48,813 nucleotides of DNA from a virus (taxonomy: Duplodnaviria; Heunggongvirae; Uroviricota; Caudoviricetes), in the IMG/VR virus record IMGVR_UViG_2718218305_000005, positions 1 to 48,813 of that record. One strand, given 5' to 3'. The stretch's first letter is position 1. Every line of letters begins with the position of its first letter. Below the pieces are notes generated by a model, which ran no database searches, was not told the origin of the DNA, and worked only from the letters and a program-made list of their open reading frames with translations. The translations under genes were made by a program, and so were the position numbers. This document shows positions 16,472-17,163 of the stretch, piece after piece.

Positions 16472-16572
16472 CGTAAAAACTGCTTCAATTCCGGTATGCT
16501 TCGCAAAGCTGTATCGCGAGGCGAACCAAGCGCATGAACTTTACCAGAACCCGCCATTGAGCGGGTTTTTTA
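16465..16572 (+). promoter_or_regulatory. Late promoter / qut region with tR'-like terminator
   Basis: TTGACG -35-like hexamer at the Q stop, then ACCCGC-CATTGA-GCGGGT hairpin plus T7 (16549..16572). Confidence 0.45.
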
Positions 16573-16610
16573 TTGCGGAATTAATTACGGACCGTTATTA
16601 TTCTGCTCCC

Positions 16611-16686
16611 GGCCCTTTAGCTCAGTGGTGAGAGCGAGCGACGCATAATCGCCAGGTCGCTGGTTCGAATCCAGTACAACGCGCCA
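16611..16686 (+). tRNA. tRNA-like element (Ile2/Met-type CAT anticodon), probably a pseudo- or chimeric tRNA
   Basis: D-arm GCTCAGTGGTGAGAGC, anticodon loop CGCATAA, T-loop TTCGAAT; but 5' acceptor GGCCCTT cannot pair with the 3' strand ACAACGC. Confidence 0.45.
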
Positions 16687-16700
16687 CACTTATTTTCCCT

Positions 16701-16725
16701 GGCTCGCTTTTGCGGGCCTTTTTTT
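16701..16725 (+). terminator. Rho-independent terminator
   Basis: GGCTCGC-TTTT-GCGGGCC hairpin followed by T7. Confidence 0.5.
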
Positions 16726-16924
16726 AAATGTCTCACAATTCAGGCGGTTGACTGTTGTCTGGTTTGCGGGGAGTTTGTTAAAAGAAACTGGCATGGTGAA
16801 TCCCCCTGTGCGGAGGGGCAATCAGCAACCAGGTATATGTGATAATCGCGGATTCAGGTGCTGATACTGAATTCACCGGGAGGCACCCGGCACCATGCAA
16901 GAAAAAGAATGTGCATGCAAACAT

Positions 16925-16948
16925 GCCCCTCTCCGGAGGGGCTTTTTT
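16925..16948 (+). terminator. Rho-independent terminator
   Basis: GCCCCTC-TCCG-GAGGGGC hairpin followed by T6. Confidence 0.6.
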
Positions 16949-17163
16949 ATGGGTAAAAAATGCCCGAATGGGTTCGGGCAATAGCATGAGATACTGATAT
17001 TGTTGTGTTGTTATCGTGTGGATTTTAACCAGGGTTTATCAGGCTGCGCAACTGCGTGGCCTTTTTTCATTTCTTGGGCTGTAGTCCCCGTGTGTCATTC
17101 AGGCTTCCGGACTACAGCCCACTCCATATCTGATTTAATACACTATCCCGGCCGGGAGGAATA

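Follow-up and report, generated by a model that had tools for sequence, protein, structure and literature searches.

A probable RNA-gene leader in the late operon of an stx-negative lambdoid prophage

Positions 16472..17163 of the window (the whole 48,813-nucleotide stretch of viral DNA analysed here) are best read as the late-operon leader of a complete stx-negative lambdoid prophage, acting as an RNA-gene leader by the mechanism proposed below; we put the probability of this reading at about 85%. The region is the gap between an ORF of 184 aa (15917..16471) and one of 648 aa (17164..19110). The original prediction described it as an empty toxin slot, found either in an stx-negative relative of Stx phages or in a phage that had lost the toxin. 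Judging from the sequence, the first description is supported: the region is related to the late regions of Stx phages and is stx-negative. For the second, a loss of the toxin, there is no positive sign.

Because two described sRNA genes and a broken tRNA fill the interval, it is ordinary, and the result matters little beyond annotation. What appears as a gap in stx-negative lambdoid prophages can be a packed RNA-gene leader. Further, the stx2 insertion site is a single junction after the tRNA terminator, which helps to judge stx-loss derivatives. The anatomy, homologies, breakpoints and frequencies given in the following sections are direct observations.

Gene order of the late region

The proposed order of a Q-like antiterminator, tR', a tRNA-like element, nanS-p, a P21-type holin and a SAR-type endolysin is borne out by Pfam, Rfam and folding (Table 1), and it agrees with the order in 933W and Stx2_95. 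DUF1367 and YbcO genes precede the DUF1133 ORF, which sits at the Q position of Rac-type lambdoid prophages, and its homologues are labelled 'antitermination protein Q' in Rac and vB_EcoS phages. By tblastn, 32 phage records, from Klebsiella, Escherichia and others, contain the DUF1133 Q, and no Stx-named record is among them. The DUF1133 protein is assumed to be an antiterminator from its position, the weak Phage_antitermQ match and the database annotation.

The predicted NanS-p has a DUF1737 N-terminus, a SASA/SGNH esterase domain and a C-terminal lectin-like DUF6645 domain (Pfam), the architecture expected of this family, and its DNA is 89-95% identical to the 933W, Stx2_95 and VT1-Sakai homologues. 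The succession of nanS-p and a holin, endolysin and Rz cassette, a late-region feature of Stx phages, was also found in the window (Pfam).

Table 1. Features of the window, in order of position.
Feature	Position	Strand	Remarks
yebY (DUF2511)	1..342		
SdsR/RyeA sRNA locus	463..607		
Integrase	735..1811	-	
RalA, type I toxin-antitoxin RNA locus	2169..2347		217 bits; adjoins Rac-like recET module; early region
sok and Hok ORF, type I toxin-antitoxin RNA locus	14222..14545		Hok ORF 14390..14545; early region
Q-like late antiterminator (assumed), Rac-prophage type	15917..16471	+	184 aa; Pfam DUF1133 8.1e-106, Phage_antitermQ 2.1e-07 (weak)
Putative late promoter PR'	16461..16489	+	-35 TTGCTT 16461-66, 17-nt spacer, -10 TTCAAT 16484-89; overlaps Q stop codon
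Short PR' leader RNA ending in tR' (predicted)	16496..16571	+	hairpin 16546..16569, U-run to 16571
pT homologue, 933W tRNA promoter	16573..16601	+	TTGCGG, 17 nt, TATTAT; aligned to annotated pT L003:1583-1611
Chimeric tRNA relic, ileZ 5' part and argO 3' part	16611..16686	+	alignment with 933W and Nil3
tRNA-operon terminator	16701..16725	+	-13.8 kcal/mol, z -3.7; sequence as in 933W (L003:1886-1909)
stx2AB (~1.33 kb) insertion point, uninterrupted here	16725..16729		blastn breakpoints
STnc100-family sRNA gene	16762..16954	+	Rfam RF02076, 149.9 bits (gathering score 47), model positions 1-206
AgvB anti-sRNA (sponge of GcvB)	16955..17016	-	Rfam RF02702, 96.5 bits (gathering score 56)
Two hairpins upstream of nanS-p	17041..17062, then U-run; 13-bp stem 17075..17122	+	-42.9 kcal/mol, z -5.6
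nanS-p sialate O-acetylesterase (predicted)	17164..19110	+	648 aa; Pfam DUF1737, SASA, DUF6645
DUF1378	19247..19426	+	Pfam
DUF826	19467..19712	+	Pfam
P21-type holin	19790..20005	+	Pfam
Lysozyme, hydrophobic SAR-like N-terminus	20532..21065	+	Pfam
Rz-like DUF2514 protein	21071..21583	+	Pfam
IS3-family element	44341..45273	-	transposase with rve and HTH_21; ALIL frameshift pseudoknot 121.5 bits; between tail fibre genes and nleC
NleC type III effector	46162..47148		Peptidase_M85 1.7e-111; downstream of tail fibre genes
pphA-like metallophosphatase	47878..48537		

The PR' leader and the terminators

PR' was placed solely by alignment with the IsrK promoter that lies behind the DUF1133 Q of the prophage of E. 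coli F1 E4, and it should be taken as putative. A consensus promoter scan returned no strong promoter at this position, and by consensus PR' is weak. The predicted leader folds with an energy of -27.8 kcal/mol (z -2.6). IsrK of Gifsy-1, StxS of Stx phages and the lambda 6S RNA occupy the same place directly 3' of Q, and they resemble the window leader in the layout of a 5' hairpin followed by a terminator and in length. The layout is also that of the true IsrK in F1 E4 (L004). The sequence match is sub-threshold, however: the isrK hit at 16498..16571 is weak (14.8 bits, E 2.9; Rfam) against a gathering score of 50, and membership of IsrK was rejected on this score even though the architecture is alike. 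In F1 E4, a close relative, the DUF1133 Q is followed by a module of IsrK, c4-a1b1 targets, C4 antisense RNA and a truncated ORF6N antirepressor (L004:3194-3392), and the tRNA relic comes after this module; at this very position the window has just the short PR' leader.

Terminator-like hairpins with a U-run occur at 14 sites in 15800..19800, as compared to 4.2 +/- 2.2 in shuffled sequences. The two stacked terminators named in the original prediction are both real (hairpins 16701..16718 with T7 and 16925..16942 with T6; terminator scan). The first, at 16701..16725, is the 'terminator upstream of the stx genes' of 933W, and the second, at 16925..16948, is the own terminator of the STnc100-family gene. 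On the minus strand, the terminator at 16980..16961 belongs to AgvB. In addition, the two very stable hairpins at 17041..17122, which separate AgvB from the start of nanS-p, have conserved counterparts in 933W and matched no Rfam family; the first of them (17041..17062) overlaps the inferred AgvB promoter on the opposite strand.

The sRNA pair

The interval had been described as about 470 bp of non-coding DNA standing empty, and as the place of the toxin. Neither description survives: Rfam places an STnc100-family gene and AgvB in it, both far above their gathering scores, and the stx2-homologous site is limited to 16725..16729. The STnc100 match is full-length, with one internal hairpin shortened. 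AgvB equals the family consensus at 62 of 62 positions and folds with a z of -3.75; its 5' end carries CACAACA, which is complementary to the R1 seed of GcvB. On the minus strand, the mapped 5' end of AgvB is preceded at 5 nt by a TAAAAT -10 element, which would be part of the AgvB promoter. The two genes are arranged tail to tail, with 3' ends at 16954 and 16955, and nanS-p starts at 17164.

The sRNA pair is a normal neighbour of stx and no substitute for it, because 933W has STnc100 and AsxR downstream of stx2B. The order in 933W is argO, a terminator (L003:1886-1909), stx2A, stx2B (end 3203), STnc100 (L003:3278-3483, 207.7 bits), AsxR (3485-3537, minus strand) and nanS-p, with STnc100 75 nt after stx2B; a distance of 75 nt between stx2 and STnc100 is also reported in the literature (PMC12370729). 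In the Sakai strain, Sp3, 4, 5, 9, 10, 11, 15 and 17 have been described as having convergent pairs of sRNA genes 3' of PR', at the site where morons insert (Tree et al., 2014; PMC4104026). AgvB belongs to Sp10 and Sp17, and AsxR to the Stx2 phage Sp5 (PMC4104026). The Sakai copies of AgvB are expressed, bound by Hfq and relieve GcvB repression (PMC4104026). Similarly, EDL933 has 11 transcribed STnc100 copies, one of which was confirmed by Northern blot (PMC5331693).

A protein-coding reading of the interval was rejected: its small ORFs have no Pfam domain, and those overlapping the sRNA genes match PHROG families of unknown function in part only. Such families most likely stem from automatic ORF calling across conserved RNA genes.

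The tRNA relic

The tRNA-like element upstream of the first terminator had been called a degenerate tRNA and a sign that part of the tRNA cluster was lost. The loss is confirmed, as the ileZ-argN-argO triplet of the Stx2a/c/d type is absent and one chimeric relic was found in its place (ARAGORN, alignment). The element itself is real; it is an ileZ-5'/argO-3' chimera produced by deletion and carrying a U33G change. Alignment with 933W and Nil3 puts the crossover in the shared T-arm motif CTGGTTC, with argN and about 175 bp missing, which from the sequence indicates a deletion of about 175 bp by recombination between the ileZ and argO T-arms.

The chimeric origin explains both the absence of an ARAGORN call and the partial Rfam match. 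ARAGORN called no tRNA anywhere in the window and none in F1 E4 (L004) or MB9-1 (L005), and it called 3 tRNAs each in 933W and Nil3. Rfam tRNA scored 37.3 bits at 16617..16676, covering model positions 7-64 only. The U33G change lies at 16643; U33 is universally conserved in tRNAs. The chimera is base-for-base identical in E. coli F1 E4 and O157:H7 MB9-1 and unchanged in many prophages. In all 30 genome matches listed the record span equals the query span, so the deletion is common to them.

The stx2 insertion point

The blastn breakpoints fall at 16724 and 16729 in the window, against 1909 and 3245 in 933W (L003) and 3550 and 4886 in Stx2_95 (L009), and they are identical against the short-tailed 933W and the long-tailed Stx2_95. 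Because of these shared breakpoints, the real stx2 slot is the point just 3' of the tRNA terminator. The window, Nil3, PhiR49_2, F1 E4 and MB9-1 have one and the same junction, GGGCC-T7/8-AAATGTCTCACAATTCAG. A 146-nt junction probe is unbroken in 1014 of the 5426 complete E. coli genomes, with either the chimera or an intact argO as its left neighbour, and homologous leaders are present in 3730 of the 5426. The empty junction is the common allele.

StxA or StxB remnants, which the original prediction had proposed to look for, were found in none of the six frames by tblastn with Stx1A/B and Stx2A/B (best E 0.23, outside the interval), and among the tblastn matches listed no Stx match inside the interval fell below about E = 19. 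Nor did blastn at word size 7 with the stx1 and stx2 cassettes give more than noise and non-coding toxin-gene flanks. The flank matches are at 16729-16761 for stx2 and, for the stx1 query, at 16791-16819 in the STnc100 core.

Weighing the alternatives

The assumption behind the original prediction, that the interval is an inert spacer holding stacked terminators and nothing else, agrees with the lack of Pfam domains in its small ORFs. It has to contend with full-length, high-scoring matches to two curated sRNA families, whose members are experimentally expressed and, in the case of AgvB, also functional, and with the conservation of the interval across thousands of E. coli prophage copies; we find it barely credible. 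Scarcely better placed, and still highly improbable, is the view that the tRNA-like element is a working tRNA-Met/Ile. That view takes its cue from RefSeq, where PGAP marks a 71-nt tRNA-Met at the identical sequence in F1 E4 and MB9-1 (L004:4166-4236 and L005:4156-4226), and the D-arm, anticodon arm (CAU) and T-arm are indeed largely intact. Yet ARAGORN rejects the element, the Rfam alignment leaves out the ends of the model, position 33 is G, and the fold forms no cloverleaf (z -0.6). The acceptor halves, 5' GGCCCTT from ileZ and 3' ACAACGC from argO, cannot pair because they derive from different tRNAs. By its sequence the element is a dead chimera, and the RefSeq (PGAP) mis-annotation of this ileZ/argO chimera as 'tRNA-Met' recurs in many complete E. 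coli genomes.

The remaining alternative is that the prophage descends from an Stx phage in which deletion removed stxAB and some of the tRNA cluster, leaving the interval as the scar. The original prediction had named, as a refuting outcome, that this backbone family never carries stx. The morphogenesis module (window 22000..46000) speaks against that outcome, since it matches VT1-Sakai (Stx1) and long-tailed Stx2a/Stx2d phages at 92-94.5% identity across 86-91% of its length; the backbone family clearly does carry stx. Such kinship with both Stx1 and Stx2 phages speaks for a loss, as does the right flank from 16869, which is 94.9% identical to VT1-Sakai, but the window flanks are only ~89-92% identical to Stx2 phages. 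By comparison, stx-negative prophages reach 94-96% identity over the wider late region and 98-99% over 16451..17200. The chimeric tRNA shows that deletion by short-homology recombination has occurred in this leader; the tRNA deletion is separate from the stx point, however, with an intact terminator between the two. A deletion scar relative to Stx2 phages was also looked for and none was found. The sole direct repeat flanking stx2 in 933W is ATCTG (5 nt), and a deletion between its copies was rejected as the source of the junction, since it would give TTTTTTATATCTGTGTCAC and the window has TTTTTTTAAATGTCTCAC. The literature deems repeated stx loss in chromosomes possible, and a scarless replacement by homologous recombination with an empty allele is possible too. 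Against descent by deletion stand the absence of Stx remnants and the junction itself, whose sequence is no different in 1014 genomes and in unrelated phage backbones where the tRNAs are intact. With a remnant-free and scar-free region, a common junction, diverged flanks and this Q type, loss from the lineage is not indicated, and we regard descent by such a deletion as very unlikely.

Proposed working of the leader

For the preferred reading, that of an RNA-gene leader in an stx-negative prophage, we propose the following course, in which the promoters, the sRNA expression and the Q-dependent readthrough are taken from the literature and by analogy. In the lysogen, polymerase starting from PR', just 3' of Q, would stop at tR' and yield only a short leader RNA. 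Any escaping polymerase would meet three more plus-strand terminators, after the tRNA relic, at the STnc100 end and at 17041..17068, so that tR' and its three backups would prevent expression of nanS-p and the lysis genes. Own promoters would drive transcription of the STnc100-family sRNA and of the convergent minus-strand AgvB. By pairing with the R1 seed of GcvB, a host sRNA, AgvB may derepress targets such as dppA. After induction, Q would make polymerase terminator-resistant, and transcription would continue across the whole leader to nanS-p, holin, endolysin and Rz. The stx2AB genes of Stx2 phages are a 1.33-kb moron placed at one point of this leader (window 16725..16729); in the window this point is uninterrupted, which is the common state.

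A further suggestion, made by analogy, is that the PR'-tR' leader (~16496..16571), made under a DUF1133 Q of the Rac type, may act in trans as a stable sRNA like IsrK or StxS, and that the invariant chimera may be kept because its transcript, driven by the retained pT, is useful as a processed RNA and not as a tRNA. We consider this unlikely; if true, the leader would encode four regulatory RNAs and no protein.

The rest of the prophage

The window seems to hold a whole prophage between yebY/sdsR-ryeA and the pphA-like gene, and its site would correspond to the sdsR/ryeA-pphA integration hot spot. Among the complete E. coli genomes of RefSeq, none matches more than 75% of window 1..24000, which makes the prophage a mosaic that is absent as such from the RefSeq set. 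A two-gene insert at 21724..23483, between the Rz-like gene and the small terminase, is absent from related Stx phages, whose homology resumes at ~23567. Its 156-aa and 430-aa (DUF6575 and DUF7226) proteins have weak matches to the PD-T4-10 A/B anti-phage defence proteins (1.3e-05 and 2.8e-04). The presence of NleC implies an attaching-and-effacing E. coli (or related) host. The host-directed cargo of the prophage includes AgvB, nanS-p and NleC, all of which are known.

Comparison with known phages and prophages

Stx2a/c/d regions typically have the tRNA triplet and nanS-p (PMC7366253). The Stx2 phages 933W/Sp5 and Stx2_95 share with the window the order of Q (assumed in the window), PR' (putative in the window) and tR', tRNA cluster, terminator, moron point, STnc100, anti-sRNA and nanS-p, and the agreement continues downstream of nanS-p through DUF1378, DUF826, holin, endolysin and Rz. 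In contrast to them, the window is without stx2AB, and its tRNA cluster is cut to one chimeric relic. The anti-sRNA is AgvB in the window and AsxR in 933W, and the Q is of the DUF1133 (Rac) type whereas that of Stx2 phages is Q933 or lambda type.

Among stx-negative prophages, F1 E4 and MB9-1 have the chimeric tRNA as well; their identity to the window is 96.3% and 94.1% over the wider late region, and 98.5% and 99.2% over 16451..17200. Nil3 and PhiR49_2 have the same empty junction, but with all three tRNAs and other Q genes: the Q of Nil3 is 933W-type, and PhiR49_2 has another Q and is without nanS-p. A different empty allele was observed in vB_EcoP_phi296, an stx-negative Traversvirus related to the short-tailed Stx2 phages, in which three tRNAs stand directly before the sRNA/nanS region and the junction (L008:3790-3866) has ~35 extra bases.

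VT1-Sakai (Sp15) and other Stx1a phages have a morphogenesis module that is 94% identical over 91% of its length, and VT1-Sakai is 94.9% identical to window 16869..20004. In Stx1a phages the stx1 cassette stands in place of all sequence before 16869, tRNAs and the 5' half of the STnc100-like gene included, and their Q, as in VT1-Sakai, is of the 933W type, unlike that of the window.

The closest parallel for the sRNA pair is given by the convergent pairs of Sakai (Tree et al., 2014), which likewise have AgvB tail to tail with a plus-strand sRNA between PR' and a conserved esterase ORF. They differ from the window in that its pair has no moron CDS upstream, and otherwise in nothing of substance. 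PasD, by comparison, occurs in a context (lambda-type Q PF03589 and LpxR) unlike that of the window's plus-strand sRNA. In PPyecE_EH1910, the cargo upstream of the sRNA pair consists of methylase, toxin-antitoxin-like and TerB-like genes. The architecture is already known and very common, and it is that of an ordinary late leader of a toxin-free lambda-like prophage of E. coli.
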